Assembly (NCBI GenBank): GCA_050011875.1 | Contig: JBEKIG010000004.1 | Coordinates: forward strand, 32,001 to 96,000 | Source of the DNA: Nitrososphaeria archaeon | GTDB taxonomy: Archaea; Thermoproteota; Nitrososphaeria; JACIWG01 | Length of the DNA stretch: 64,000 nt | Reading direction: 5' to 3' | Shown: positions 4,178 to 28,581 of the stretch, piece by piece | Layout: the number at the start of each line of letters is the position of its first letter | Numbering within the stretch: position 1 is the stretch's first letter | Notes under the pieces: model-generated | Told to the model about the DNA's origin: nothing | The model's database searches: none | The model's input: the letters and a program-made list of their open reading frames with translations, nothing else | Position numbers and translations under genes: made by a program

Positions 4178-5173
4178 TTATTGGTCATCGATTATTACAT
4201 AATCATTTGGGTTAGGAGTGGAGTAGCTAAGTATGGTCAATGGTTCACTAGAGGAAATCTTGTGCTTTTTAAGGGGAAGGATGTGGACTACATCTCCTTC
4301 GCTGACCTTGACCTTTTCGTCATCCAGATCGAGGTACCCTTCACCCGAAATAATATGGATTGTCTCATCCCTTTCCATATGATAATGCATGGGAATGGAG
4401 CATTCTTTCATAACATAGTACTGCGTTGTCATATACTTGTCCGAAATCGCTATACTTTTTTCGTACCCCCAAGGCTTGTCTATTCTGTTAACGAACTCCT
4501 TTTTAACTATCTCAAGATCCTTTTGGGAGTCAACTGATTGCCAGAATGCACCTTCTTCCATATAGTAGTTGAGCAGACCTTCTTTAGCGAGAGACGGAAA
4601 CACTGCCTTTTCAACAGCGCCTTCATCAAAAGCCAGAAACCGATCTTTTATGCTACAGTCTATAATATAAATGCCTGCGTTAATATAATATGGTAAAGTA
4701 GGCTTTTCTTTGAAACCGCTTATCTTACCATTAGAAAGTTCAACTATACCGTAAGGGGAAACAAGTTTTGTCACTGCAATGCTTGCAGTGTTAATAGTAA
4801 AATGATCAAGCATCTGTCTGATGTTCATGTCGGTTACAATATCACCGTTCATTACAAGATAACGTTGGAAGTCATATTCCTTAAGGAGGCTATTTATCGC
4901 ATATAATGTGCCACCTGGCTTCTCCTCTATTGAGTATGTGATTTTCATGCCATTCCAGCTTTTTCCGTATTTTTCTTCTATCTTCTCATGAAGATAACCA
5001 GAAAGAAGGCAGACCTGCCCGATCCCAGCATATTTCATTTGGAAGAGTTGTCTGTCCAAAATAGAATAATTTTCTTTTATCTCAATCAGTGACTTGGGAG
5101 TATAATCGGTAATGGGTCTTAGCCTCTTGCCCAGCCCTCCACAAAGTATTCCACCTATTATATTATTAGACAT
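4178..5173 (-). CDS. Sugar-phosphate nucleotidyltransferase with C-terminal cupin
   Basis: GGLGKRLRPIT..PK signature; C-terminal KPWG..HYH..E cupin (MPI-like). Confidence 0.85.
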   Translation of the reverse strand: MSNNIIGGILCGGLGKRLRPITDYTPKSLIEIKENYSILDRQLFQMKYAGIGQVCLLSGYLHEKIEEKYGKSWNGMKITYSIEEKPGGTLYAINSLLKEYDFQRYLVMNGDIVTDMNIRQMLDHFTINTASIAVTKLVSPYGIVELSNGKISGFKEKPTLPYYINAGIYIIDCSIKDRFLAFDEGAVEKAVFPSLAKEGLLNYYMEEGAFWQSVDSQKDLEIVKKEFVNRIDKPWGYEKSIAISDKYMTTQYYVMKECSIPMHYHMERDETIHIISGEGYLDLDDEKVKVSEGDVVHILPLKKHKISSSEPLTILSYSTPNPNDYVIIDDQ

Positions 5174-5203
5174 CGCGTGTACACTTTTATGTAATTCATT
5201 TTA

Positions 5204-6421
5204 CTACTTTTTTTCGAGAAGCTCTTTTACAGCCTTATTGATTCTGGCTACACCCTCCTGTATAGCTTCTGAGCTCGATGCAAAAGATAATCTGATGAAC
5301 TCGTATCCAGCTTTATCCGGAAATACAGAACCAGGCAAAGTTACAACGTAATATTTGTTTATCAGGCGCTCAACAAGATCTTCCGATGAAATTCCTGTCT
5401 CTCTAGTAAACTTGGATACGTTCGGAAACATATAGAATGCACCTTTACTGGGCCAGACCTCAAAGCTTGGGACCTGCCTAAGCAACTTTGCCATTAGATC
5501 CCTGCGTTTTTGGAAAAGCTGTATCATGCTCTTAACAGGTTCCCACGTGCCTGTGATTGCTGCAACCGCGCCCTTCTGTGCGAAGCTTGTAGGGCAGGAG
5601 TATATATTCACGGCGAGCCTTGTTAGCTTTCTTGCGACATCTTCTTTAACGACCGTGTACCCTAAACGCCAACCTGTCATTGAGAACGTCTTGCTAAATC
5701 CATTTAAATAAACGACATAATCTTTCCAGTCGCTTTCTGTAAGAATACTTTTAAACTCTGCATTATCGTATATGAAGTTATCGTATATTTCATCGACCAA
5801 TAAAACTAAATTATTTTCCTTCACTATTTCATAAACTTTTTTCACTTCGGAAGGTTTGAACAAAGCTCCGGTAGGATTTTGGGGGCTGTTCAAAACGATC
5901 ATCTTCGTTTTCTTTGTTACCGATGAGCGAATCTTCTCTACATCAAGACCGAAGCCCATTTCTGGCCCCAACCACCTGAGAGGCACAAACACCGGCTTAG
6001 CACCTACAAAGTACGCTACTTCAGAGTACGCTGGGAAAGCTGGTTCAGGGATGATGATTTCTTCACCGGGATTAAGATATGAAGCAACGCTTAGAAATAT
6101 AGAAGCTTTGCCACCAGGTGTGACTATGATTTCCGAGGGTTTAACACCAGCCGCATACCGCCCATTAAGATATGACGCTATGCCGTCTCTTAGTTCTGGA
6201 ATCCCAGCTGTTTCAGTGTAACCAGTAAAGCCTTCATCTAAAGCCTTCTTTGCTGCTTCAACAATATGAGGAAAAGTTGGAAGGTCAGGCTGGCCTACGC
6301 CAAATGTGATCACGGGGAGCCCTCTGTTTGCAAGCTCTCTGGTTTTGCCTACGTAGATAAAGGCAGCTTCACCTATTAATTTTGGAACAATCGGCTTAAT
6401 ATTTTCGGTTGGAGATTTCAA
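5204..6421 (-). CDS. PLP-dependent class I/II aminotransferase (aspartate aminotransferase-like)
   Basis: GQPD, NSPQNPTG, DEIY and SKTFSMTGWRLG motifs. Confidence 0.9.
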   Translation of the reverse strand: MKSPTENIKPIVPKLIGEAAFIYVGKTRELANRGLPVITFGVGQPDLPTFPHIVEAAKKALDEGFTGYTETAGIPELRDGIASYLNGRYAAGVKPSEIIVTPGGKASIFLSVASYLNPGEEIIIPEPAFPAYSEVAYFVGAKPVFVPLRWLGPEMGFGLDVEKIRSSVTKKTKMIVLNSPQNPTGALFKPSEVKKVYEIVKENNLVLLVDEIYDNFIYDNAEFKSILTESDWKDYVVYLNGFSKTFSMTGWRLGYTVVKEDVARKLTRLAVNIYSCPTSFAQKGAVAAITGTWEPVKSMIQLFQKRRDLMAKLLRQVPSFEVWPSKGAFYMFPNVSKFTRETGISSEDLVERLINKYYVVTLPGSVFPDKAGYEFIRLSFASSSEAIQEGVARINKAVKELLEKK

Positions 6422-6500
6422 TCCAATACGCCTCTTTCTATGATGAATTTTAAGTTAATAAATTTTTGCAAAAAAGATGCAAGAAAAACTATTTTTAATA

Positions 6501-7439
6501 CTACATTGTCACATAATCTTTAGCAACATCCAAAACGGCTCGCAAGAGATTCTGTAGTTCGTCTCCTATCATGTAAGTCATAGGCTCTAAGCCGAAGGCT
6601 CCTTCATCAAAGACAACAAACAAGGGTTCATTTTTTGATTTGATTATGTTCTTCACGCCTTCTATGACACCATTCTCACTAGGCTTTCCACTATGTTCGG
6701 TCTTAGCGTAGGGAAGCTTTATTGATTGAACAACAGACTTCAGCTTTTCATCGAACTTTACATTGATCACGGCTTTATAGTTTGGGTTCGTTCGTTGAAT
6801 TTCAAGTAAAAGTTTTGCTATATGACTCTGAATTCCGAATTCAGGGGATGAAGTAGCTTTAGCTAGATTTCTAACCCGCACGATTCTTCCCGGTACCGTT
6901 GCGATATCGTCGATGGTTTCTGCTGAGCCCGATGATGCCGCAATGTTAACGTAAACCTCAGGTATTATCGCAGCAAAGTAAGGAGACGTTTCAATTGAAG
7001 AAATAGCTCTTATCATGGATTTTATGAGCTCTCCCTTTTCCTCATTATATCTGGTGAATGAAAAGAGCTTCACACATGCTGTACAATCTTTTACGGCAGA
7101 TACTTTCTTTCTGTGTAAAGCGCAGACCTGTCCACCTATTACAAGTTCACGCCAGATGGCGTGCAACGTTTCAACTGATCGAGGAATGTTTGATACGACA
7201 TCATCCGCTAACATTTCTATATCTCTGTCCATCGACTTCTCGTTCAAACCTATTTCCACCAACTTCTTTCTAAAGTAAGAAGGATTTTTTCCAAGGTAAT
7301 AGCTTATAGATGGCTGAGTGATTCCAAGTGACTGTGATATCTGAGTCTGCGAGTATCCCCTGCCTTTCAGCTTATGGGCTACGAGGCCTCGCATGTTCGG
7401 AAGGAAATCCTTTGACATAATTTCACAAAACGAGAACAT
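6501..7439 (-). CDS. ThiR-like regulator (HTH + ThiN-type domain)
   Basis: N-terminal HTH (YSQTQISQSLGITQPSISYY); IPEVYVNI, VPGRI, PEFG and GLEP motifs of the ThiN fold. Confidence 0.75.
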   Translation of the reverse strand: MFSFCEIMSKDFLPNMRGLVAHKLKGRGYSQTQISQSLGITQPSISYYLGKNPSYFRKKLVEIGLNEKSMDRDIEMLADDVVSNIPRSVETLHAIWRELVIGGQVCALHRKKVSAVKDCTACVKLFSFTRYNEEKGELIKSMIRAISSIETSPYFAAIIPEVYVNIAASSGSAETIDDIATVPGRIVRVRNLAKATSSPEFGIQSHIAKLLLEIQRTNPNYKAVINVKFDEKLKSVVQSIKLPYAKTEHSGKPSENGVIEGVKNIIKSKNEPLFVVFDEGAFGLEPMTYMIGDELQNLLRAVLDVAKDYVTM

Positions 7440-7658
7440 TCAATAATCTACTTATAAAGTGGGTTATAAAAACTTAGCTTAAGAAGAATACGTTTAAGGT
7501 TGCTGGTTAAACTTCTAAAAAAGCAGAATTATATTAGAAGAGTTCGAGATTTGCAATGGTTCTTTTAAGATAGGAAGTTTAGATTCCTATAATATAAAAC
7601 CTATCCATCCAGACCGCACGAAAAGATTATATTTGAATAGGATTCTGAGAAAAAGTTA

Positions 7659-8720
7659 ATGCTCTACGTCATCCACACAACGGGGCAGTGCAACCTAAAA
7701 TGTGCCTATTGCGGTGGAAGTTTTCCAAAACAATTCGTGCCATGGGAGATAAAGTATAGCATCAGCTCCCTTAAAGAAATCGCTAAACGAGAAGAAATAG
7801 ACATCTGCTTCTATGGAGGAGAACCTCTATTAAACGGGGAGTTCATAAAAGAAGTGATCAAGTGTGTTCCTGCCAAGAGATTTATTGTACAGACGAATGG
7901 CCTTCTAGTAAAGGAATTTGATCCAAAATTCTGGGAAAACTTCGATACAATTCTTCTTTCAATAGATGGCGTTAGGGACGTCACAGATTTCTATCGTGGT
8001 GAAGGCATCTACGATAGAGTAGTTGAAGCAGCGCACATTCTCAAGGAAAGTGGGTATAGGGGCGATGTTGTTGCGAGAATGGCACTGGCCGAAGAAGGAG
8101 ATATTTTTAGAGACGTAACCCATCTCCTTTCTCTAAACCTTTTCAATCACGTACATTGGCAATTGAATGTGGTTTGGAGCCAAGCTTGGAAAAATTTCGA
8201 AAAATGGGTTGAAACTAATTACATGCCAGGCATAAAAAAGCTGGTCTATTATTGGATAAATAACATGCAAGAGGGAAGAGTGTTGGGGATCGCGCCTTTC
8301 CAGGGCGTTTTAAGGAGGATGATCTATGGGGGAGTGGCGCCACCGTGCGGTGCGGCTACTGACATGCTTTCAATATCAACTGATGGGCGAATTCTAGCAT
8401 GTCCGATAGCTTTCGAAGAAAGATGGGCCGAACTTTCCACTTTAAATGAGAATAAGAAGGATTTCAGAACTTGCTTTATCAAAGAACCGTGTACTGACTG
8501 CGATGTCTTCAAAGAATGTGGAGGGAGATGTCTTTACGCCTACATGGAAAGGTTTTGGGGGGAAGATGGATTCAATAAGATCTGCGAATTCACTAAGGAA
8601 CTAATATTTATGATCAGAAGTGAAAGGAACAAAATACTTGATTTAGTGAGCAGAGGAAAAATCAGGGAGGAAGAACTCTTTTACCCCAGCTATAACAATT
8701 CAATAGAAATAATACCTTAG
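7659..8720 (+). CDS. Radical SAM/SPASM protein (AF0577/TIGR04084-like)
   Basis: CNLKCAYC motif, GGEPLL, C-terminal CxxC...CGGRC and a NNSIEIIP tail. Confidence 0.8.
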   Translation: MLYVIHTTGQCNLKCAYCGGSFPKQFVPWEIKYSISSLKEIAKREEIDICFYGGEPLLNGEFIKEVIKCVPAKRFIVQTNGLLVKEFDPKFWENFDTILLSIDGVRDVTDFYRGEGIYDRVVEAAHILKESGYRGDVVARMALAEEGDIFRDVTHLLSLNLFNHVHWQLNVVWSQAWKNFEKWVETNYMPGIKKLVYYWINNMQEGRVLGIAPFQGVLRRMIYGGVAPPCGAATDMLSISTDGRILACPIAFEERWAELSTLNENKKDFRTCFIKEPCTDCDVFKECGGRCLYAYMERFWGEDGFNKICEFTKELIFMIRSERNKILDLVSRGKIREEELFYPSYNNSIEIIP

Positions 8721-9779: not shown

Positions 9780-9993
9780 AATGATCCCTCCGCGAACGGA
9801 TATGTAGGACTTCGATTTAATACCTCTCTCGTTGACAGACCAAGAGGCCCTAGCGGATTAGTGGTCTTCAATTGTTGACTGGCGTCCATACACCCGTTAA
9901 AAGAGCTCGTCTCCTTGGATGTAGGTGACGTCGATTGGGCGGGGATTAATGTTTAATTACGCTTTCGACAATTATTTTGCGGTTGCTGATTTG

Positions 9994-12594
9994 ATGGCAG
10001 ATGACCAAGAGATTCTGTCTCTCGGCGTTGACGACGTTTTAGCTCGGCTGAAGACATCCCGGTCTGGGCTTTCCTCACAGGAAGTTCAGAGCCGCATTGC
10101 AACGTACGGACCGAACGAGCTGGCTAAGAAGCAGAAACGCACCGGGCTTATTGAGATTCTGTACCACCTGAGAAATCCACTCGTGTTGATCCTCCTGATT
10201 GCGGGTTTAGTCTCCGGGTTTGTAGGAGACATAACAGACGCGGTCATAATTTTCACAATCGTGCTTCTCAGCATCGTTCTTGACGTGTATCAAGAATCCA
10301 AAGCTCAAAACGCCGCCGACGCACTCAAAGAAAGGGTCACCACAAAAGCAACAGTTCTCAGAAACGGCACCAAACAAGAAGTGAAACTTTCCGAAATCGT
10401 ACCAGGTGACATAGTCTATCTCATCGCAGGAGACCTCGTTCCCGCCGATTCCAGATTAATCGACGCAAAGGACTTGAACCTCAACCAGTCAGCATTAACA
10501 GGAGAAGCCTTTCCAGTAGAAAAGAACGCTGCCCCGCTTTCAGCTAGCACGTCCGAACTGACCAGCTGGAACAACTACGTATTCATGGGAACCTCAGTGG
10601 TCAGCGGAACCGGAACCGCCGTCGTGGCAAAGACCGGAAGCTTAACGGAATACGGAAAAATCGCCAAAGACCTCGTGGCCAAGACGCCTGAAACCGAATT
10701 CGAAAAAGGGCTTCGCCGATTCGGAGCCTTAATGACCGAAGTCACTCTTTTCCTCGTAGTTTTCGTCTTTTTTGTAAACGCATTTTTCTTTTCAGGCAGC
10801 CGCAGCATTCTGCAATCCCTGCTTTTCTCAGTGGCTCTTGCCGTGGGCTTAACGCCGGAGCTTCTGCCCATGATAATGTCCATCAACCTATCCAGAGGCG
10901 CCGTGGCAATGTCTAAAAAAGGCGTAATCGTGAAACGGCTGGCCTCAATTTCAAACTTCGGCAACATGGACGTTTTATGCACGGACAAAACCGGCACGCT
11001 CACAGAGAACAAGCTCACACTAAGCGAATACGAGGACCTGGAAGGAAAAGAAGCCCCAAAAGTGCTCATGTACGCTTACTTTAACAGCGTTTTTGAAGCA
11101 GGACTGAAAAGCTCTCTAGACGACGCCATGATTCAGTATAAGCAGTTCGACGTCACTGGCGTCCAGAAAATTGACGAAGTGCCCTTTGACTTCATCCGAA
11201 AACGCGTTTCAGTAGTGGCCGAGTACGAAGGACAAAGACTCCTAATCTCCAAAGGAGCCCCTGAAGAAATCCTCAAAATCTGCACCTACTGCGAAACTGA
11301 CGAAAACCTAACCGATCTAACAAACGTTTACCAAGCCAAGTTTGAGCAAAAATACAACGCACTCAGCGCTGAAGGATACAGGGTTCTAGCCGTCGCATAC
11401 AAGAAAGTCAAAGACGACAAAACACACTACACAATCACCGACGAAACCGACATGATCTTTCTAGGTTTCCTGTCTTTCCTTGACCCACCTAAAGAAAGCG
11501 CGAAAGAATCCATCCGTTTACTGGCCAGAGACGGCGTAGAACTCAAAATCGTCACCGGCGACAACGAACTAGTCACAAAAACAACCTGCGAACAACTGGG
11601 CTTCAACATAACAGGAGTCATCCTCGGAAACGACATCGCCCAACTCCAAAACGACGCCCTAGCCCGAGTCGTAGAGGAAAACAACATTTTCGCCCGCGTA
11701 AACCCCGCTCAAAAAGACAGAGTAATCAACGCCCTAAGAACCAACGGACACGTAGTAGGCTACATGGGAGACGGCATCAACGACGCCCCCTCCCTGAAAA
11801 CGGCAGACGTAAGCATATCAGTAGAAAACGCCGTTGACGTCGCCAAAGAATCCGCCGACCTCATACTCCTGCAGCCTGACTTAACCGTGCTCGATCAAGG
11901 CGTTCTGGAAGGCCGCAAAACCTTTGGCAACACCATGAAATACATCATGATGGGCGTCAGCTCAAACTTCGGCACAATGTTCAGCGTAGCCGGAGCCTCC
12001 CTGTTCCTAAACTTCCTACCCATGACAGCTATCCAAATTCTCCTAAACAACCTCCTATACGATCTTTCCGAAGCAACCATACCAACAGACAACGTAGACG
12101 AAGAATACATCGAAAAACCCAAAAAACTAGACATCTCATACATAAGAAGGTTCATGATGACCATGGGCCCCGTAAGCTCTATATTTGACTTCCTGACCTT
12201 CTTTTTGATGCTGGAAATCTTCAAAGCAGCAGTTCCCGTTTTCCAAACCGCATGGTTCGTAGAATCTCTTGTAACACAAACACTTGTGGTTTTCGTGTTA
12301 AGAACCAGAAAAACTCCATTCTACAAGAGCAAACCCGGGAAATTTTTGACGATAAGCAGCCTATCCGTCGCGGCGGTCGCCTTCATAATTCCCTACACGC
12401 CCCTTGCCACCATATTCAATTTTTCGCCTCCCCCACTAGCGTTCTACCCAGCCCTAGCAGGACTAATAGTCGCCTACCTTCTCCTAGTTGAGGTCGTCAA
12501 GAAATGGTTCCAAAAACATAACGCTTACCGCCTGGAACAAATCTATGCCCCGAAAAAAACAAAACCGGCCGACCAAACAACCAATAAGCTTTAA
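9994..12594 (+). CDS. mgtA: Magnesium-translocating P-type ATPase
   Basis: DKTGT, TGE, LTPELLP, PFDF, GDGINDAP, SSNFG and LLNNLLYD motifs. ATG at 9994 is more likely than GTG at 9925. Confidence 0.9.
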   Translation: MADDQEILSLGVDDVLARLKTSRSGLSSQEVQSRIATYGPNELAKKQKRTGLIEILYHLRNPLVLILLIAGLVSGFVGDITDAVIIFTIVLLSIVLDVYQESKAQNAADALKERVTTKATVLRNGTKQEVKLSEIVPGDIVYLIAGDLVPADSRLIDAKDLNLNQSALTGEAFPVEKNAAPLSASTSELTSWNNYVFMGTSVVSGTGTAVVAKTGSLTEYGKIAKDLVAKTPETEFEKGLRRFGALMTEVTLFLVVFVFFVNAFFFSGSRSILQSLLFSVALAVGLTPELLPMIMSINLSRGAVAMSKKGVIVKRLASISNFGNMDVLCTDKTGTLTENKLTLSEYEDLEGKEAPKVLMYAYFNSVFEAGLKSSLDDAMIQYKQFDVTGVQKIDEVPFDFIRKRVSVVAEYEGQRLLISKGAPEEILKICTYCETDENLTDLTNVYQAKFEQKYNALSAEGYRVLAVAYKKVKDDKTHYTITDETDMIFLGFLSFLDPPKESAKESIRLLARDGVELKIVTGDNELVTKTTCEQLGFNITGVILGNDIAQLQNDALARVVEENNIFARVNPAQKDRVINALRTNGHVVGYMGDGINDAPSLKTADVSISVENAVDVAKESADLILLQPDLTVLDQGVLEGRKTFGNTMKYIMMGVSSNFGTMFSVAGASLFLNFLPMTAIQILLNNLLYDLSEATIPTDNVDEEYIEKPKKLDISYIRRFMMTMGPVSSIFDFLTFFLMLEIFKAAVPVFQTAWFVESLVTQTLVVFVLRTRKTPFYKSKPGKFLTISSLSVAAVAFIIPYTPLATIFNFSPPPLAFYPALAGLIVAYLLLVEVVKKWFQKHNAYRLEQIYAPKKTKPADQTTNKL

Positions 12595-16824: not shown

Positions 16825-16900
16825 GCTGACCAGAGCATCAAGCTGATTAACAAAGCGATTTCAGCTTTAATTTACTTGTAAATAATGAACAGAGAAGAAT

Positions 16901-16921
16901 TGGTGCGGGCCCGGTGAGATT
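16901..16921 (-). repeat. Isolated tRNA 3'-end fragment (att-like scar)
   Basis: The - strand reads AATCTCACCGGGCCCGCACCA; 15 of 16 bases match tRNA-Arg 23641-23656 (AATCCCACCGGGCCCG). Confidence 0.6.
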
Positions 16922-23111: not shown

Positions 23112-23581
23112 TTAGGTCAGAGATTTCGTGAAGAATGCTTTATCGCCGTACTTATACTTATAATGGTAGTTATATTTTTGTAGTTTTGCCATTACATTTT
23201 CTTTTTTTAGATACATCTTCCTGTTTTACGGAACAATTAATTTTGAATTCTGTTCCTTTAACCTTTTTAGAATTTTAACTTGTTATTGTTTTTTTAGTTG
23301 CAGAAAAGTTTAAACTACGTCAACGGCTCTTTTGATTCTTCGACTCCATCGCCTTTCTTGTCCAATTTTTTTGAGGAAAGCTTTGGCTTTCCCTGGACAA
23401 CTCCATACCCTAACAGAACCGGTTCTTATCTAGCAACCTCTTTGATCTGGATTACTCCATATTTATATTTCGAGGCTTCATCCTTTAATATCACCTTGAG
23501 TACCCTGTCCAAAGGACTTTCACCCTTAAGGTTCTCCAGCACCCAATAAAGCTGCCTTCCAGACATGTAATCGATTATGAT

Positions 23582-23656
23582 GGGCTCGTGGCTCAGTCTG
23601 GATAGAGTACAGGCCCTCTAAGCCTGGGGTCGTGGGTTCAAATCCCACCGGGCCCG
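23582..23656 (+). tRNA. tRNA-Arg (anticodon TCT), intronless
   Basis: Acceptor stem GGGCTCG/CGGGCCC, anticodon arm CAGGC-CCTCTAA-GCCTG, T arm GTGGG-TTCAAAT-CCCAC. Confidence 0.95.
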
Positions 23657-23810
23657 AACCCAATTATTCTCTGTTAATTATTTACCAGTAAATTAATGCT
23701 AAAATCCCACATTAATTGGAAGCATTAGATGGCAAAGATCCAATAAAAATTGGGTCCGGTTCGCTCAATGCACTCACAAACTAACTAAGAAAGACTTTCC
23801 ATCTTTATAG

Positions 23811-24130
23811 AAACTTTACCTATTTTGTTAAGGTTTCCTTTACCTATTTTGTTAAGGAAAAAATGCTGAACAGACTTTGATAAATTCTGTTCAAACAGAT
23901 ATTTTTTAACAAAATTAGTGCTAACCGTCCGCTGACTTGCTCGAACAGATCCCCCTATGTTCAAATGATTATCACTTTGCTCTCATGCAGAGCGCATTTA
24001 ACTTGAGCAGATAAAAAAAGTTAGCGCTAAATATTTTTCCGAAAAATCAGTTGAACAGAACACAATTGCACACAAATGACCTGTTGTAAAACCTTAACAG
24101 ATCCGGTAAAGGTTATTTTAAAGTGAACTT
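23811..24130 (+). ncRNA. Long-hairpin structured unit A (putative ncRNA or folded ssDNA)
   Basis: Nested stems 23885-23894/24051-24060, 23915-23925/24020-24030 and 23937-23944/24003-24010, plus a terminal inverted repeat; diverged paralogue of unit B. Confidence 0.6.
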
Positions 24131-24393
24131 CAAAAAAATGCGTACATCAAAAATAGACAGAAAGAACTTCCGGCTACATGTTCGAGAAGAAGGAGCTATT
24201 CTGAAAAATTGATAAGGGGATCTGAAATAAAAAGCGACAGTACCTTACTTAGATCAAAGGGGCAATCATTTTACTAAACCTTTTTAGCGAACCCCCATAA
24301 GTTGGAGCCTTCTTCCAGTTAAAATCATAGCGATAGGTTTTTGCAAAACTTCCCCTAACGTCAAGCCGGGAACAGCATCTACCTACATTTAAC

Positions 24394-24714
24394 AAACCTT
24401 TACCGATTTTGTTAAGGTTTCCTTTACATATTTTGTCAATGAAAAATCCGCTGATAATCGTGGATAAAGTTTGCTCATGCAGATATTTTTTTGAACAATT
24501 AGCGCAGACGGTCTGCTGATTTGCTCGGACAGATCCCCCTGTGTATTATTTGTTATCATATTGCTCCCATGCAGGACGGTTTTAAGTTGAGCAAACAAAA
24601 ACTGTTTGTGCAAACTTTTTTGTCTAAAAATCAACTGAGCAAACTATTTTTGCACCTAGTTGATTGAACGTTGTGCATTAACAGATTTCGTAAAGGTTCT
24701 TTGATAGTGAACTT
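24394..24714 (+). ncRNA. Long-hairpin structured unit B (diverged copy of A)
   Basis: Collinear with A; stems such as 24468-24477/24636-24645 keep their pairing through compensatory changes. Confidence 0.6.
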
Positions 24715-24780
24715 GTAACAAAAGGAATGTACGGCCCGTGAGACACTTTGTTTTGATCGACTAACTAGAATTTATGGGAA

Positions 24781-24832
24781 ATGTTCAAAAAGTGGGTTTA
24801 CGGTCATGACCACAGACATTAATTTTGAACAT
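24781..24832. repeat. 52-bp quasi-palindrome P1
   Basis: ATGTTCAAAA AGTGGGTTTACG GTCATGAC CACAGACATTA ATTTTGAACAT. Confidence 0.85.
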
Positions 24833-25076
24833 TATTGCCTAAAAGGAAGTTATAATTTAGTATCAATTTCTTCTCATTAATTGCGCCACTTACATCCACT
24901 ACACCTATTATAGAAGAGTTAAATTTCTTCCAAATATGCTTTGCCATATCAATAGACGAATGATAGGAAGGTGATTGCAACTACACCAAATATCAGGAAG
25001 AAAAAGAAAATACGACTAAACCAATTATCTGAGGAATTGGAAAACTCATGGTATTGTAGGTTAACTGGACCTTAAA

Positions 25077-25128
25077 ATGTTCAAAAATGGTGACTGCTGT
25101 CATGACCGGGGAAGCAGATTTTGAACAT
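25077..25128. repeat. 52-bp quasi-palindrome P2
   Basis: ATGTTCAAAA ATGGTGACTGCT GTCATGAC CGGGGAAGCAG ATTTTGAACAT. Confidence 0.85.
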
Positions 25129-25182
25129 AGTTCTCCATTTTAGGTAAAGTTTCCATTTAGATCGTTAACTAACTAAGAAAAA

Positions 25183-25460
25183 AACCTTTACATATAGCGT
25201 AATAATTAATCATCAGAGGCCGTTTAGAATGTTCAAGCCGATCTCCAAACAGGAAAAACGCGCAGCCCTATTATAGCAGATTCCCCAATAAACCCCAGTA
25301 TTCCTTAGGAAAACAGGCATGTTCCTCTATATATAGCAAAAAATTTTTTTTCTGTTTGGTGAACAGACGTTTGAACATTTGAACTTAATTATTACGCTAA
25401 GAGTAAAAGTTAATTTAATTATTACACTACAAGTAAAAGTTAAACACTAACTAAGTGAAC
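25183..25460 (+). ncRNA. Long-hairpin structured unit C (more divergent family member)
   Basis: 5' arm 25183-25209 pairs with 25385-25411 (duplicated at 25415-25441). Inner stems AATGTTCAAGC/GTTTGAACATT and CCAAACAGGA/TTCTGTTTGG. Shares AACCTTTAC, CAGATYCCCC and GTAAARGTT..AGTGAAC with A and B. Confidence 0.5.
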
Positions 25461-25607
25461 ATGCAAAAGGAAGATAAGTCCAAAGAGGAAATGAAGCCCT
25501 ATGGTTCAGGGCTGATGGGCCGGCAGGTGAAGCGATCAAAGAGGAACGAGATAAACCTCCAACCCTCAAAGACAATGCCAGACAGCTAACTTATCACTAG
25601 ACTTTAA

Positions 25608-25658
25608 ATGTTCAAAATGGTGATTACTGTCATGACTGTGGATACAGATTTTGAACAA
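25608..25658. repeat. 51-bp quasi-palindrome P3
   Basis: ATGTTCAAAA TGGTGATTACT GTCATGAC TGTGGATACAG ATTTTGAACAA. Confidence 0.85.
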
Positions 25659-25881
25659 GACGACCTTAATGTAAAAAATAAGTTTTGTCCGTTATACAAT
25701 GATCTTAATGCTACAAGAAATGTTAAAAAAAATTAGAGTCAGACTTATAGTCGAACAATGTAGAATCCCATTTTAAAATAATAGAATCATTACTTAACTT
25801 CTATAGAATCTTCAATTGGAATATTAATCTAGTTCTCCGAGAATCAATCAAAACCTTTATTGCTTCAAATGCTTAAAAAAA

Positions 25882-26223
25882 TTATTGCGGGTTTGTACAG
25901 CCGTATATCAACCCTGTAAAAATTAAGCCGAAAGCGAATATGCCAAAAGCTAACAAATCAGTGTTTTCTGGTGGATCTACTACAAGACCTTTGTAGCATC
26001 TGCAGAACTCCTTCTGTTTAACGTTTTTTGGTGGGGTCATCCACTTGTTTGTCTCTTCTAAATCTCTGTACACGTAGACTTGCACAGTTCGGGGGTCTAA
26101 ATTGCATACTTCACCCACTTGATTGATAGTGTATTCCTTATCTTTCTCTAAACTTCCTTCTAAACATTTTACGAATTTCTTTATTGGTGGTTCATAAGGT
26201 CCTCTTGACATCATTGAATTCAC
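25882..26223 (-). CDS. Small HTH-like protein with a C-terminal TM helix
   Basis: YTINQVGEVCNLDPRTVQVY (HTH-like) and LLAFGIFAFGLIFTGLIYG (TM). Confidence 0.55.
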   Translation of the reverse strand: MNSMMSRGPYEPPIKKFVKCLEGSLEKDKEYTINQVGEVCNLDPRTVQVYVYRDLEETNKWMTPPKNVKQKEFCRCYKGLVVDPPENTDLLAFGIFAFGLIFTGLIYGCTNPQ

Positions 26224-26375
26224 ACCTAGGTGTAATTTTGTAAATATAATTTAAACTTTTCCTAAGGGCATGTACAGCAATAATATAAACTCCATAATAT
26301 CTTTGGGTTCCGAAAGTAAAACGAACGATAGTGATTCTACTTCACTACCTTTTACTCGAAGGACTTTTGGAAATT

Positions 26376-26427
26376 ATGTTAAGAAAAGGAGAGTGTCGTC
26401 ATGACCGCAGGCAACGATTTTGAACAT
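26376..26427. repeat. 52-bp quasi-palindrome P4 overlapping the RBS and start of the topoisomerase-like gene
   Basis: ATGTTAAGAA AAGGAGAGTGTC GTCATGAC CGCAGGCAACG ATTTTGAACAT; ATG 26401 lies in the central GTCATGAC. Confidence 0.8.
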
Positions 26428-28581
26428 GATGATGACATCACGAACAAAATCAGAGCACGGCCACGGATCTACGATTTTTTCACTCTCGATGGCGTGCAGC
26501 GGCTTACCGGGTGCACACCAGAAAAATTCCTCTTGTTCATGTCAAAGGAATTAACCGATAACGCCCTCGATAAACGGAATGTAAAGAATGTCAAGGTCGA
26601 GATCGTTGAAGAAGGCAAAATATTGATTCTGTCAGTATCTGATGACGGAAAACCAACGTTTGATAGTGAATCTCTGACTAAGATCCTAGACTTTGAGAAA
26701 GCGCCCTCCGAGAAAAGAGGAAAAAAGTGTGTAAAAAGAGGAGTACTTGGGAACGCACTACAAAGTTGCTTCGGGATTTCTTATGCAACATTCAACGCAG
26801 ACAACAGACCTGAATACACTGCAGAGGTATGGGGAACCAAAAAATTTTTCATAAAGTTGGATCCCAGTAAGACATCATTTCAAGAAGAACCACGGGAAAA
26901 CGATGGCTTTACAGTCATTCGATTCAAACTACCAACTGGCAATTATGTTTCACCTTTTAGAATTTTAAGAACTATCGCCCTGCTTAACCTCTATGTCACT
27001 ATCTCTTACAAGGATAAAGAATTAGAACACACTTCCGCAGCTTTGGAATGTATCAAACCTCCCATACAAAACGAAGTTGATATACATTGCTATAGTTATG
27101 CAGAATTTAGCGACTTTGTCGATGAGATACAGCATAGTACAGTGGAGCAGTGTGTGACGATCTTCAAAGGCCTAAAGAACCGTTTCTACGCAAAAAAGGT
27201 CCTCGAGGATGCAGGTATTAAGCCTGGAACGAGGCTTTCAGATCTTAGCTCTAAAGAACGTCAATGCCTTTTCAGTACGATAAAAAAGGCTGCGAAGACC
27301 CTAAAAGCCATCCAACTACCTGTAGTCGGCAAAGATTCATTCGAGCAGCATGGTATTGTGAACTACTTTGTAAAGCGTGGTACATTGAGCGATAAAGAGG
27401 GGAGAATCGTGCCCTATGTTGTCGAGGCCGCCTCCTTCGAAGACAAGGATGAAGAGATTTTTGAGACAGTAAACTTCACGACATCGATACATCATCCCTT
27501 CACCATGTACGTTTTCACTGAAGGAGAAAAAAGAGTAAAATTTAGTGATCTCACGAAGGACAAAGGGCTAAACGTGCTTATCCACCTAGTGTGTCCAGCG
27601 ATCACATGGCTCAGCGCAAGCAAGGGCGAAATGGATATTCACCCCTTTCAGGATGCGATATTTTCAGCAATCAGACATGTCTGCAGGCAGAACAAGATGA
27701 CAGGATTTGATTCAGAAACTTTGATTTCACTTACCAACAATGTTATGAGTTCCTACCCGACATTTAACTTTACGCTCAGGCAGGTCTTCTACCTTCTGGT
27801 GTCTCATCACGGTTACCCTAACGAGAAACAAGCCTACAACAAGCTAGGTAAAGCTCTTGTCAAGGCAAGACAAGAAGGGACAGTAGATGCGGATAGAATT
27901 CTGGACTTGAGCAGGCCAGAGTACATAAATAACAGCTCGTATCAATCGTTCCTAGAGCGGGCCCGATCAGACTTCAAGACACTGATTAACGACTTTGATT
28001 TAGATAAATGGAGTCTACAACCGATATACTGTGAAACATGGATAGAAAAGGAGGCCCTCTCCAGAGTCATTGCACCGGTCTGCAAGAAATATAGTGTAAA
28101 CGAAATTGTTGGACGTGGCTATTCATCCTACACACAAATTCGAAGAGCTGTCAAAAGACTTCCAGAGGATAAGAAGGTAATCATACTCTATATTGGCGAC
28201 TTTGACCCGCCTGGACTTCACATAGAAGAGAAGCTAAAAGAAAGGCTCCTTGATGAAGCAAGTAGAAGAGGTAAACACTTACAACTGGATGTGAGGAGGG
28301 TCGCCTTAACCTATGAGCAGATTCAACAGTATCACCTTCCTGCCTCTCCCTTGAAAAAGTCAGGCCAAAAGCGTCAAGAATACCTAGAAAAATATGGAAG
28401 TGACGTATGGGAGGTTGATGCCTTAAGTCCTGAAGTCCTTATAAAAACTTTAGAGGAAGAAATTAGAAGTTTAATCGATTGGGAGATCTGGAACAAAAAA
28501 GAGGAAGAGGTCGAATACTTTAGGGGACTACTAAGAGAAGGCTTGGGACGATTTCTAGACGAACTGAACGCTTTCGAATGA
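26401..28581 (+). CDS. Single-chain type IIB topoisomerase-like protein (Topo VIII-like: GHKL ATPase + transducer + WHD + Toprim)
   Basis: KELTDNALD, VSDDG and GVLGNAL (GHKL); TLRQVFY (catalytic-Tyr WHD); WIEKEAL, GRGYSS and GDFDPPG (Toprim). Confidence 0.8.
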   Translation: MTAGNDFEHDDDITNKIRARPRIYDFFTLDGVQRLTGCTPEKFLLFMSKELTDNALDKRNVKNVKVEIVEEGKILILSVSDDGKPTFDSESLTKILDFEKAPSEKRGKKCVKRGVLGNALQSCFGISYATFNADNRPEYTAEVWGTKKFFIKLDPSKTSFQEEPRENDGFTVIRFKLPTGNYVSPFRILRTIALLNLYVTISYKDKELEHTSAALECIKPPIQNEVDIHCYSYAEFSDFVDEIQHSTVEQCVTIFKGLKNRFYAKKVLEDAGIKPGTRLSDLSSKERQCLFSTIKKAAKTLKAIQLPVVGKDSFEQHGIVNYFVKRGTLSDKEGRIVPYVVEAASFEDKDEEIFETVNFTTSIHHPFTMYVFTEGEKRVKFSDLTKDKGLNVLIHLVCPAITWLSASKGEMDIHPFQDAIFSAIRHVCRQNKMTGFDSETLISLTNNVMSSYPTFNFTLRQVFYLLVSHHGYPNEKQAYNKLGKALVKARQEGTVDADRILDLSRPEYINNSSYQSFLERARSDFKTLINDFDLDKWSLQPIYCETWIEKEALSRVIAPVCKKYSVNEIVGRGYSSYTQIRRAVKRLPEDKKVIILYIGDFDPPGLHIEEKLKERLLDEASRRGKHLQLDVRRVALTYEQIQQYHLPASPLKKSGQKRQEYLEKYGSDVWEVDALSPEVLIKTLEEEIRSLIDWEIWNKKEEEVEYFRGLLREGLGRFLDELNAFE

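Follow-up and report, generated by a model that had tools for sequence, protein, structure and literature searches.

The four sites and their gene

The window analysed here is a stretch of 64,000 nucleotides from the genome of a Nitrososphaeria archaeon (contig JBEKIG010000004.1, positions 32,001 to 96,000 of the forward strand), and the subject of this work is a set of four long palindromic sites, P1-P4, together with the gene of a topoisomerase-like protein. All four sites stand in direct order upstream of this gene or at its start, within one 1.65-kb stretch (Table 1). They are built on a common plan: inverted arms of 9-11 bp (TGTTCAAAA / TTTTGAACA), spacers of 10-12 nt, the sequence of which differs from site to site, and an invariant centre, GTCATGAC. 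The arms of P1-P3 are perfect over 10-11 bp, and P4 is a poorer palindrome; of the uniform architecture proposed in the original prediction, the near-fixed spacers were thus confirmed, but the four sites are not equally good palindromes.

A repeat search placed P1-P4 in a single 54-nt family, the members of which are 296, 530 and 769 nt apart. The pattern formed by the centre plus the right arm has three exact matches in the window versus none in 100 shuffles, and the arm decamer occurs seven times (0.35 expected), five of these seven copies being within the sites. In the whole genome (2,643,350 bp), the exact pattern finds the four sites, and a relaxed full-site pattern, which tolerates 2+1+2 mismatches, finds P1-P4 and one further degenerate palindromic match (C3:188739). 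In a sample of 401 genomes of the class, the half-site pattern is confined to this genome (four sites) and a congener (three sites), apart from two other genomes with one single-sided half-site match each. The repeat search, the shuffles and the genome scans show that the four sites, as originally described with shared arms, invariant centre and variable spacers, are real. They are also locus-specific, since the scans of the whole genome and of the 401 genomes found no scatter of the motif beside unrelated host genes. No site lies 3' of the topoisomerase-like gene in the window, and GACTAGTC, the centre found in other loci (see below), is absent from it. An ungapped palindrome scan with a strict threshold picked up one site only.

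The ATG in the centre of each site opens an MTxxx(D/N)FE peptide, as had been noticed before, the open reading frames (ORFs) being of 24, 13, 34 and 726 codons: MTTDINFEH.. in P1, MTGEADFEHSSPF in P2, MTVDTDFEQ.. in P3 and the gene itself in P4. Shine-Dalgarno-like (SD-like) motifs, GGTGA in P2 and P3 and AGGAG in P4, are indeed present 13-14 nt ahead of the ATG. TATA-like hexamers are found at -28 to -31 in P2-P4, inside or beside the left arm. In P4 they are represented by AAATTA at -31, with AGGAG at -14, and the right half of this site encodes residues 1-9 of the 726-aa protein. Genome-wide, TATA-like signals peak at -31/-30 (leaderless genes) and at -41 to -37, and SD-like motifs are found at -15 to -9. 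In each of P2-P4, a TATA-like hexamer at -28 to -31 is combined with an SD-like motif at -13/-14, although one and the same transcript could not make use of both.

One possible explanation might be that the sites act in RNA, as hairpins that hide the SD-like motif and the start codon and so control translation. P1-P3 and their orthologues do fold with z-scores of -2.0 to -4.7; however, three gene-proximal sites tested fold no better than shuffles (+0.26, +0.68 and -0.83), and on this ground a hairpin was rejected for the real gene. Besides, the invariant 8-nt centre cannot pair with itself within a hairpin, a TATA-like box at about -30 means that the left arm would be left untranscribed, and an Rfam scan gave tRNA only. 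Translational control of this kind is thus hardly credible.

Table 1. Features of the window and positions of sites in related loci. Positions are those of the window unless a locus is named; distances are relative to the fused gene.
Feature	Position	Strand	Remarks
P1	24779..24833		perfect arms of 11 bp; centre GTCATGAC, 24803-24810; a 24-aa ORF starts at the central ATG
P2	25075..25129		10-bp arms; centre 25099-25106; TATA-like TTAAAA at -30, GGTGA at -13; 13-aa ORF
P3	25605..25658		10-bp arms; centre 25629-25636; opens a 34-aa ORF
P4	26374..26427		at the real gene start; centre 26398-26405; left arm degenerate (TGTTAAGAAAA)
Topoisomerase-like gene	26401..28581	+	726 aa; single-chain type IIB topoisomerase-like
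Hyper-divergent block versus congener	25894..28390 (L006 ~5066-8000)		gene ~71% identical in nucleotides, 55% four-fold divergence
Interval A (P1-P2)	24834..25074		non-coding by Pfam; 88-89% identical to congener; unrelated to other intervals
Interval B (P2-P3)	25130..25604		missing in congener; holds the MITE-like repeat
Interval C (P3-P4)	25659..26373		first ~235 bp shared with congener, rest unalignable; holds the 113-aa ORF
113-aa ORF	25882..26223	-	C-terminal hydrophobic segment; weak winged-helix-like structural hints
MITE-like repeat, ~280 bp	25178-25456		80% identical copy at C1:171680-171958
tRNA-Arg(TCT)	23581..23657	+	left edge of the low-GC (0.35-0.36) island holding the array
Repeat-rich spacer	23658..24780		two diverged ~330-bp units (23714-24071, 24395-24722), iteron-like tandem 21-mers
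Sites of L008, L009, L043/L044	at the start codon
Sites of L007	233 bp upstream; in-frame in gene at ~+540; 113 bp downstream
Sites of L040	322 bp upstream; ~370 bp downstream
Sites of L034 group	~900-990 bp upstream; 138 bp downstream
Site of L050	1069 bp upstream
Sites of L037	in-frame in gene at ~+540; 287 bp downstream
Sites of L041/L042	in-frame in gene at ~+540; 82 bp downstream
Site of L031	71 bp downstream
Site of L045	103 bp downstream
Site of L038	333 bp downstream
In-frame site of one clade	L007 ~1928-1975; L037 ~2545-2592; L041 ~2032-2079; L042 ~6496-6543		in the ATPase domain

The topoisomerase-like protein

The N-terminal ~430-480 aa of the protein are Top6B-like, with a GHKL domain, a G2 box of the GxxGxA type and the remaining Top6B fold, and in the predicted structure (AlphaFold, mean pLDDT 84.8; residues 1-19, 30-39) they superpose on Top6B structures with E ~1e-20. 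The C-terminal ~290 aa represent a Mini-A-type 5Y-CAP and Toprim module with R460, Y464, E549, D600, D602 and a WEVDAL box. Residues 437-715 match a viral 'DNA topoisomerase' PHROG (phrog_6247, E 2.5e-60), and the Pfam Top6A/Spo11 Toprim model is matched just over its cut-off; by sequence, Top6B and Top6A chains give weak matches, and PADLOC gave weak JetD Toprim matches (E 0.001-0.004). In an alignment of 16 sequences, the N-box, G1, G2 (GxxGxA), R460/Y464, E549 and D600/D602 are invariant or nearly so, and judged by these residues and by the fold matches the enzyme looks active and symmetric.

The protein was compared with the published motif definitions of Mini-A and Topo VIII (PMC7671362, sections 13, 14 and 16). 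It shares with Mini-A the R-x-x-[Y/F]-Y motif (R460, F463 and Y464, invariant in the same alignment), the Toprim glutamate and DxDxxG (E549 and G605 invariant; G599, D600 and D602 nearly so) and the T2BI box, xWELDAL, which is VWEVDAL here and VWELDAL in the family consensus (W670 invariant, E671 and D673 nearly so). Mini-A as described is a protein of ~300 aa lacking the ATPase (B) module, with no B partner found according to PMC7671362, whereas the window protein has 726 aa and a Top6B-like N-terminus. The presence of B and A parts in one chain and of the GxxGxG/GxxGxA box (GVLGNA, residues 114-119) is as in Topo VIII; however, VWEVDAL stands in place of the RVELNAM box, and Y464 is followed by L-L-V, so that there is no Arg at Tyr+3 (the family consensus, FYRLV, has Arg at +1). 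The tandem separate A and B subunits of Topo VI are not found either: the gene is a single ORF, and its NCBIfam Top6A scores are 14-20 bits against cut-offs of 424-675. By the published criteria, the cleavage module thus belongs with Mini-A rather than with Topo VIII, yet it is fused to a B-like ATPase, and the fusion may be a fourth type IIB subfamily.

No description of a fusion of Top6B-like and Mini-A parts was found in the literature searched. Its B-like module fills the gap noted for Mini-A, the want of a B partner. According to PMC7671362, archaeal Topo VIII is restricted to Euryarchaeota, and the Topo VIII that linearises plasmids without religation has a G2 box of the GxxGxA type. Reviews of 2021 and 2024 state that archaeal members of these enzyme families are still uncharacterised. 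Among 401 sampled genomes of the phylum, the fused gene occurs in one (this one) and stand-alone Mini-A in 12 others. A word-indexed protein search for the family yielded 18 matches; an exhaustive search of 1.84 billion sequences gave 1529 matches at E<=1e-30, mostly Mini-A proteins of ~300 aa, and, among the best 150 representatives at 50% clustering, ~16 full-length single-stretch fused forms as well as ~12 more distant ones. The N-termini of the closest relatives, P0004 and P0006, are MTLGSNFEH and MTVSNDFEQ. Viral contigs contained neither relatives of the fused gene nor matches to the sites.

Comparison with the congener

In the congener (genome G009, locus L006), the gene occupies the corresponding position and is accompanied by an orthologue of P1, a second site and a gene-start site. 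The arms and the centre of the P1 orthologue (L006 centre 4505-4512) are identical to those of P1 in the window. Window positions 24690-25127 and 25596-25893 align to one continuous stretch of L006 and overlap in one site, which is a hybrid: its left part is P2-like, its right part is P3-like, and the mosaic switch falls within ~12 nt left of the centre. Because both window blocks overlap in this single site, the 530-bp P2-P3 unit is a site-bounded insertion or deletion.

In the arms and centres, none of 60 nt is changed between the window and L006 (52 nt if the hybrid centre is counted once), versus 75 of 622 nt (12%) in the P1-P3 region outside of them (P about 0.0004-0.001). This background is close to the four-fold-site divergence of the neighbouring host genes, 5-13%, these genes being 95-97% identical. 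The arms and centres are thus selectively conserved, while the spacers and flanks drift at the neutral rate. The lengths of the micro-ORFs are kept, with 18 of 25 and 26 of 35 positions identical at ~12% nucleotide divergence; since 7/25 and 9/35 residues differ, they are not constrained as peptides.

The gene itself belongs to a hyper-divergent block (Table 1). Its divergence is far above that of the flanks, and therefore a different allele was acquired in place by one of the lineages. The same pattern of allele replacement is seen between L034 and L040, where the flanks are 91-94% identical and the gene ~75%. In-place swapping of divergent alleles is a pattern typically shown by genes that conflict with other genetic elements. 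An apparent end of the homology with the congener exactly at the P4 centre was dropped, because in a sensitive alignment the similarity starts from 26381, the left halves of the sites being similar but diverged. In L006, the minus-strand ATG of the gene-start palindrome opens a divergent Cys-rich ORF of 129 codons (5616-6005, minus strand) with no Pfam match.

This comparison bears on another explanation, already considered in the original prediction, that P1-P3 are decaying relics, now without function, of 5' ends which the gene had before it was duplicated or its allele replaced. Each site does combine elements resembling a promoter and an SD motif with an ATG that opens MTxxxDFE(H/Q); in P3, the codons just past the arm, E-Q-D-D, are similar to E-H-D-D of the gene, so that about four more gene-like codons are retained; and the gene block was demonstrably replaced between the congeners. 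But relics would not be expected to keep arms and centres invariant between species while everything around them drifts neutrally, nor to be better palindromes than P4. Homology stops at the site edge, and homologous sites situated downstream of or inside genes elsewhere (see below) cannot be 5' remnants. The relic explanation therefore fits poorly and is very improbable.

Sites in related loci

Homologous palindromes of 48-78 bp, with a shared arm motif and GACTAGTC or GTCATGAC as the centre, were found in 15 of the 18 fused-gene loci, at least one site in each (L031 and L038 having near-identical genes). Thus, the conservation beside homologous genes, on which the original prediction had hinged, is seen both in the congener and in the other loci. 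In L032, L048 and L049, the proteins of which are 48-52% identical, GTCATGAC is kept on the ATG and the arms are recognisable; in the other lineages, the palindromes are centred on GACTAGTC, its one-mismatch variants or variants with a CTAG core. The arm motif ATGTT(C/A)A(A/T)AAAT is common to the window, L031, L034 and L040 despite their different centres, and the central dinucleotide is AT or TA in all intact sites. The positions of the sites relative to the gene vary considerably (Table 1).

The 15 non-redundant loci without the GTCATGAC type (115,707 bp) contain 13 exact copies of GACTAGTC, all within 1.5 kb of the gene, whereas 0.52 would be expected from its frequency in five host genomes (33 per ~7.4 Mb; P = 1.8e-14). 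The remaining copies, 13 in one host genome and one in another, all lack arms. As a control, 85 loci of stand-alone Mini-A (565,849 bp) contain two copies of GACTAGTC and three of GTCATGAC; an unusual palindrome was found at one of 52 bacterial Mini-A starts, and the 12 loci of stand-alone Mini-A in archaea are free of armed sites. The enzyme is the sole protein common to the site-bearing loci, no accessory family being present in all of them according to BLASTP. These results support the sites being functional symmetric DNA elements that are tied to the downstream gene and not a genome-wide host motif.

In one clade, a site lies in-frame within the ATPase domain and encodes a loop insertion, V-K-N-C...T-S-L...Q-N-F, which is missing in other members of the family. 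Taken with the N-terminus of the window protein, which is modelled as disordered, this indicates that the sites override coding. The insertion could also be taken to mean that the site is a mobile palindromic element, similar to MITEs or to Rickettsia palindromic elements (RPE), which are known as in-frame insertions, and that it inserts near or into the gene with no function for it. The varying positions of the sites around the gene and the richness of the neighbourhood in other repeats would agree with that. However, there are no other copies in the 2.64 Mb genome save the one degenerate match on C3, no armed copies elsewhere in two other host genomes and no copies in 399 other genomes of the class; target-site duplications were not seen, and in different archaeal classes the sites are linked to the same single gene family. 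Insertion of a mobile palindrome is thus improbable.

The sites may also be operators or binding sites of another dimeric protein, such as the product of the 113-aa ORF, the ribbon-helix-helix (RHH) proteins encoded elsewhere or a host factor, with no involvement of the enzyme; transcription of the gene and of adjacent genes would then be controlled by that protein. P4 and the sites of six other lineages span about -35 to +25 relative to the start codon, where operators are classically placed, and the TATA-like hexamers at -28 to -31 by the left arm agree with the leaderless peak of the genome at -31/-30. The 113-aa ORF, with its weak hints of a winged helix, is divergent from P4, and RHH genes are present in three loci. 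Against this, no regulator family is common to the site-bearing loci, many sites are downstream of or inside the gene, where such a role is unlikely, and for a small repressor a length of 50-78 bp, with the palindromic centre set apart, is large. Besides, even between the congeners the 113-aa ORF is not kept, whereas the sites are. Sole action through an unrelated regulator is therefore rather unlikely, but P4 as such may be an operator.

Rearrangement junctions inside sites

Several differences between related loci fall inside the sites. In L038, compared with L031, a half-site ending in ...GACTA is fused to a segment that is inverted relative to L031, and a full inverted copy of the site is found 260 bp beyond this junction. 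A block of L042 which begins with the downstream site is found upstream and inverted in L050, and in L045 three TAGTCTA repeats replace the left inner half of the site, at its centre. These cases are anecdotes from metagenomic contigs and not a statistical test. Tyrosine integrases are encoded within 2.5 kb of the gene in L009, L034, L038 and L039, adjoining tRNA genes in the latter two, and therefore the family rides integrated elements, as is the case for Topo VIII as well as Mini-A.

The original prediction likened the sites to the att/res sites of serine recombinases or to boundaries of integron cassettes. The junctions inside the sites agree with a recombination-like behaviour, but kinship with these two systems is not supported: the ORFs of the window that were scanned (7.6-34 kb) include neither a resolvase nor IntI or another integrase, and the presumed cassettes are mostly non-coding and unrelated to each other. 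More generally, the sites might serve as crossover points of a separate site-specific recombinase, a tyrosine integrase or some unknown enzyme, the array being an integron-like stack of cassettes. One conserved site is repeated between unrelated DNA, related loci differ by a site-bounded indel and by inversion-type changes, and in four loci an integrase gene is close by. But besides the scanned ORFs of the window, five small ORFs of L006 include no integrase or resolvase; the arms lie 10-25 nt from the centre, unlike in lox/dif-type cores; the intervals are almost free of genes; and some sites are inside coding sequence. The integrase of L038 and L039 adjoins a tRNA gene, the usual attachment site, and so the palindromes are not needed as att sites. 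A separate recombinase is, thus, a quite unlikely user of the sites.

In L050, a second kind of palindrome, AACATGGT...CCCGGG...ACCATGTT, was observed (~1685-1712 and ~2497-2522), which brackets a conserved upstream segment.

Surroundings of the array

The intervals between the sites, the 113-aa ORF and the repeats are listed in Table 1. The C-terminus of the 113-aa product is similar to an 81-aa ORF of the congener. The MITE-like repeat bears short inverted repeats at its termini and includes a tandem duplication of 30 bp. The ~330-bp unit of the repeat-rich spacer is multi-copy in the genome, related copies being present on at least nine other contigs; one of these is located near a second GHKL/Toprim-like gene on C11. 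This distant GHKL ORF (824 aa, C11:119057-121531, minus strand) matches positions 11-420 of the family profile (E 4.4e-28), and neither a palindromic site nor a tRNA gene was found near it.

No direct repeat of the 3' end of tRNA-Arg bounding the island was found. An inverted copy of this 3' end (16857-16921, minus strand) is located 6.7 kb upstream of 23636-23710 and includes ~50 nt of the downstream flank; the inverted pair brackets a segment that includes DNA with a GC content of 0.49-0.50, the genome being at ~0.40. The congener has only a 3' fragment of tRNA-Arg, and the tRNA was not called in its compared locus. ARAGORN also gave a 95-nt tRNA-Ser(ACT) (10460-10554, minus strand) inside the ORF of a P-type ATPase (9925-12594), which is probably false.

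Possible function of the sites

The P1-P4 sites appear to belong to a conserved class of sites which travels with single-chain genes of the Top6B-like plus Mini-A type in archaeal mobile elements. The interpretation that we favour, with a probability of about 0.45, is that they are two-fold-symmetric cognate sites of the enzyme itself (gate, binding or cleavage sites), that P4 is in addition an operator, and that the sites act as local hot spots of breakage and rejoining. Topo VI is a two-fold-symmetric A2B2 enzyme for which bent gate DNA of 74 bp was modelled, with contacts of the H2TH and stalk elements of the B subunit on the flanks, and it cuts with 2-nt overhangs at AT-rich hot spots (PMC13040014). 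The symmetry of the sites, their length of 48-78 bp, the A/T-rich arms and the AT or TA in the middle match this geometry, which is why they are read here as cognate sites. The GxxGxA box, shared with the plasmid-linearising Topo VIII, would fit sites that are prone to breakage.

According to this model, the homodimeric enzyme would take a site as its preferred gate segment, with the dimer axis passing through the 8-bp centre (GTC-AT-GAC here, GAC-TA-GTC elsewhere), at which two tyrosines may cut with the 2-nt stagger that is typical for type IIB enzymes. The arms, two to three helical turns out, might be gripped by the B-like modules on bent DNA. As P4 lies over the promoter and the start of the gene, its occupancy may feed back on expression, and such autoregulation might operate wherever a site covers the promoter and the start, i.e. 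in seven lineages including P4. The orphan sites P1-P3 would be extra functional copies, and the unrelated DNA between the sites, as well as the site-bounded indel, might be products of breakage and rejoining or of recombination at the sites.

Several observations weigh against these cognate sites. Type IIB topoisomerases are, to our knowledge, not known as sequence-specific enzymes. The distance from arm to centre, ~17-27 bp here and 24-36 bp in the upstream site of L034 (L034_u), is awkward for one rigid footprint. Three of the 18 loci (L035, L039 and L047) have no site by the patterns used, and by a generic statistic for gapped palindromes the gene-proximal sites are not individually unusual and there is no clear global enrichment. 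The congener has intact sites although its gene is divided between two frames and contains a stop, which would be surprising if the enzyme alone maintained the sites, except where the break arose recently or through an error of assembly. Ordinary recombination between repeats of 57 bp, 86% alike, could account for the P2-P3 indel, and a fast-evolving small DNA-binding regulator could have escaped BLASTP.

It is also conceivable, although unlikely, that the fused enzyme is itself a sequence-specific breaker and rejoiner which recombines its own palindromes, i.e. a new site-specific recombinase or self-mobilising module based on type IIB (Spo11-like) chemistry. The array, the site-bounded indel, the inversions and the half-site junctions would then be footprints of the enzyme. 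In any case, a defined site that travels with one enzyme family offers a substrate for binding, cleavage and structural work, and makes it possible to ask whether the enzyme is a true topoisomerase, a Spo11-like maker of programmed double-strand breaks or a recombinase.

Comparison with known systems

As in integrons, an imperfect palindrome is repeated here between unrelated DNA beside the gene of a DNA-breaking enzyme, its arms being conserved and its inner sequence varying. In contrast to integrons, no IntI is encoded among the 33 ORFs of the window and L006 that were scanned (a genome-wide search for IntI was not made), the centre is invariant, the intervals are mostly non-coding, the last site lies over the start codon of the enzyme, and in the other fused loci the sites flank or interrupt the gene. 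The attC sites have core sites of the RYYYAAC / GTTRRRY type and a variable centre, motifs which are not matched by the arms TGTTCAAAA / TTTTGAACA. The res and att sites of serine recombinases have no counterpart of their enzyme here, as no Resolvase or Recombinase match was obtained among the scanned ORFs (no genome-wide search being made). In cores of the lox/dif type, inverted arms of 11-13 bp directly abut a spacer of 6-8 bp, whereas the arms of the present sites are separated from the central palindrome by 10-12 nt here and by up to ~25 nt in L034_u.

The REP/REPIN-RAYT systems are similar in that the gene of a DNA-cleaving enzyme is flanked by palindromes thought to be its targets. However, a genome with REPINs has tens to hundreds of scattered copies of them, whereas P1-P4 are confined to one 1.65-kb stretch with one degenerate match elsewhere, and RAYT is an HUH transposase (Y1), while the adjacent enzyme here is a relative of type IIB topoisomerases. 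Autoregulatory operators and centromere-like arrays of plasmids, for example parC and the AspA site of pNOB8, likewise consist of several palindromes that precede and overlap the promoter of a gene in a mobile element. The sites described here differ from them by the spacing of 300-770 bp, the unrelated DNA in between, the lack of partition genes and, in the relatives, the presence of sites inside and downstream of the gene.

Preferred topoisomerase sites do exist for gyrase, a type IIA enzyme, the strong ones being the Mu SGS, REP/BIME and the par site of pSC101. For a type IIB enzyme, Topo VIII or Mini-A, no palindrome or inverted repeat is reported as a cognate site in the text of PMC4117785, PMC7671362 and PMC6563490. 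With the gate segment of Topo VI, the sites share a two-fold-symmetric enzyme on a long (~70 bp) bent duplex that would be cut at an AT-rich dyad with a 2-nt stagger (PMC13040014); but Topo VI has a preference for deformability and no defined palindromic site, whereas the sites found here are conserved, locus-specific and multi-copy. The window protein has the T2BI box, the catalytic tyrosine and the Toprim residues of Mini-A, and differs from Mini-A as outlined in PMC7671362 (~300 aa, no B partner) by its full Top6B-like module. It resembles most Topo VIII in carrying the ATPase part in one chain and differs from them in lacking the RVELNAM box and Arg at Tyr+3. With both groups it shares the context of mobile elements, integrases and tRNA genes being found nearby in other fused loci. 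What appears to be new, on the strength of the sequence comparisons, is the family-wide linkage of a fused type IIB topoisomerase-like enzyme with long palindromic sites.

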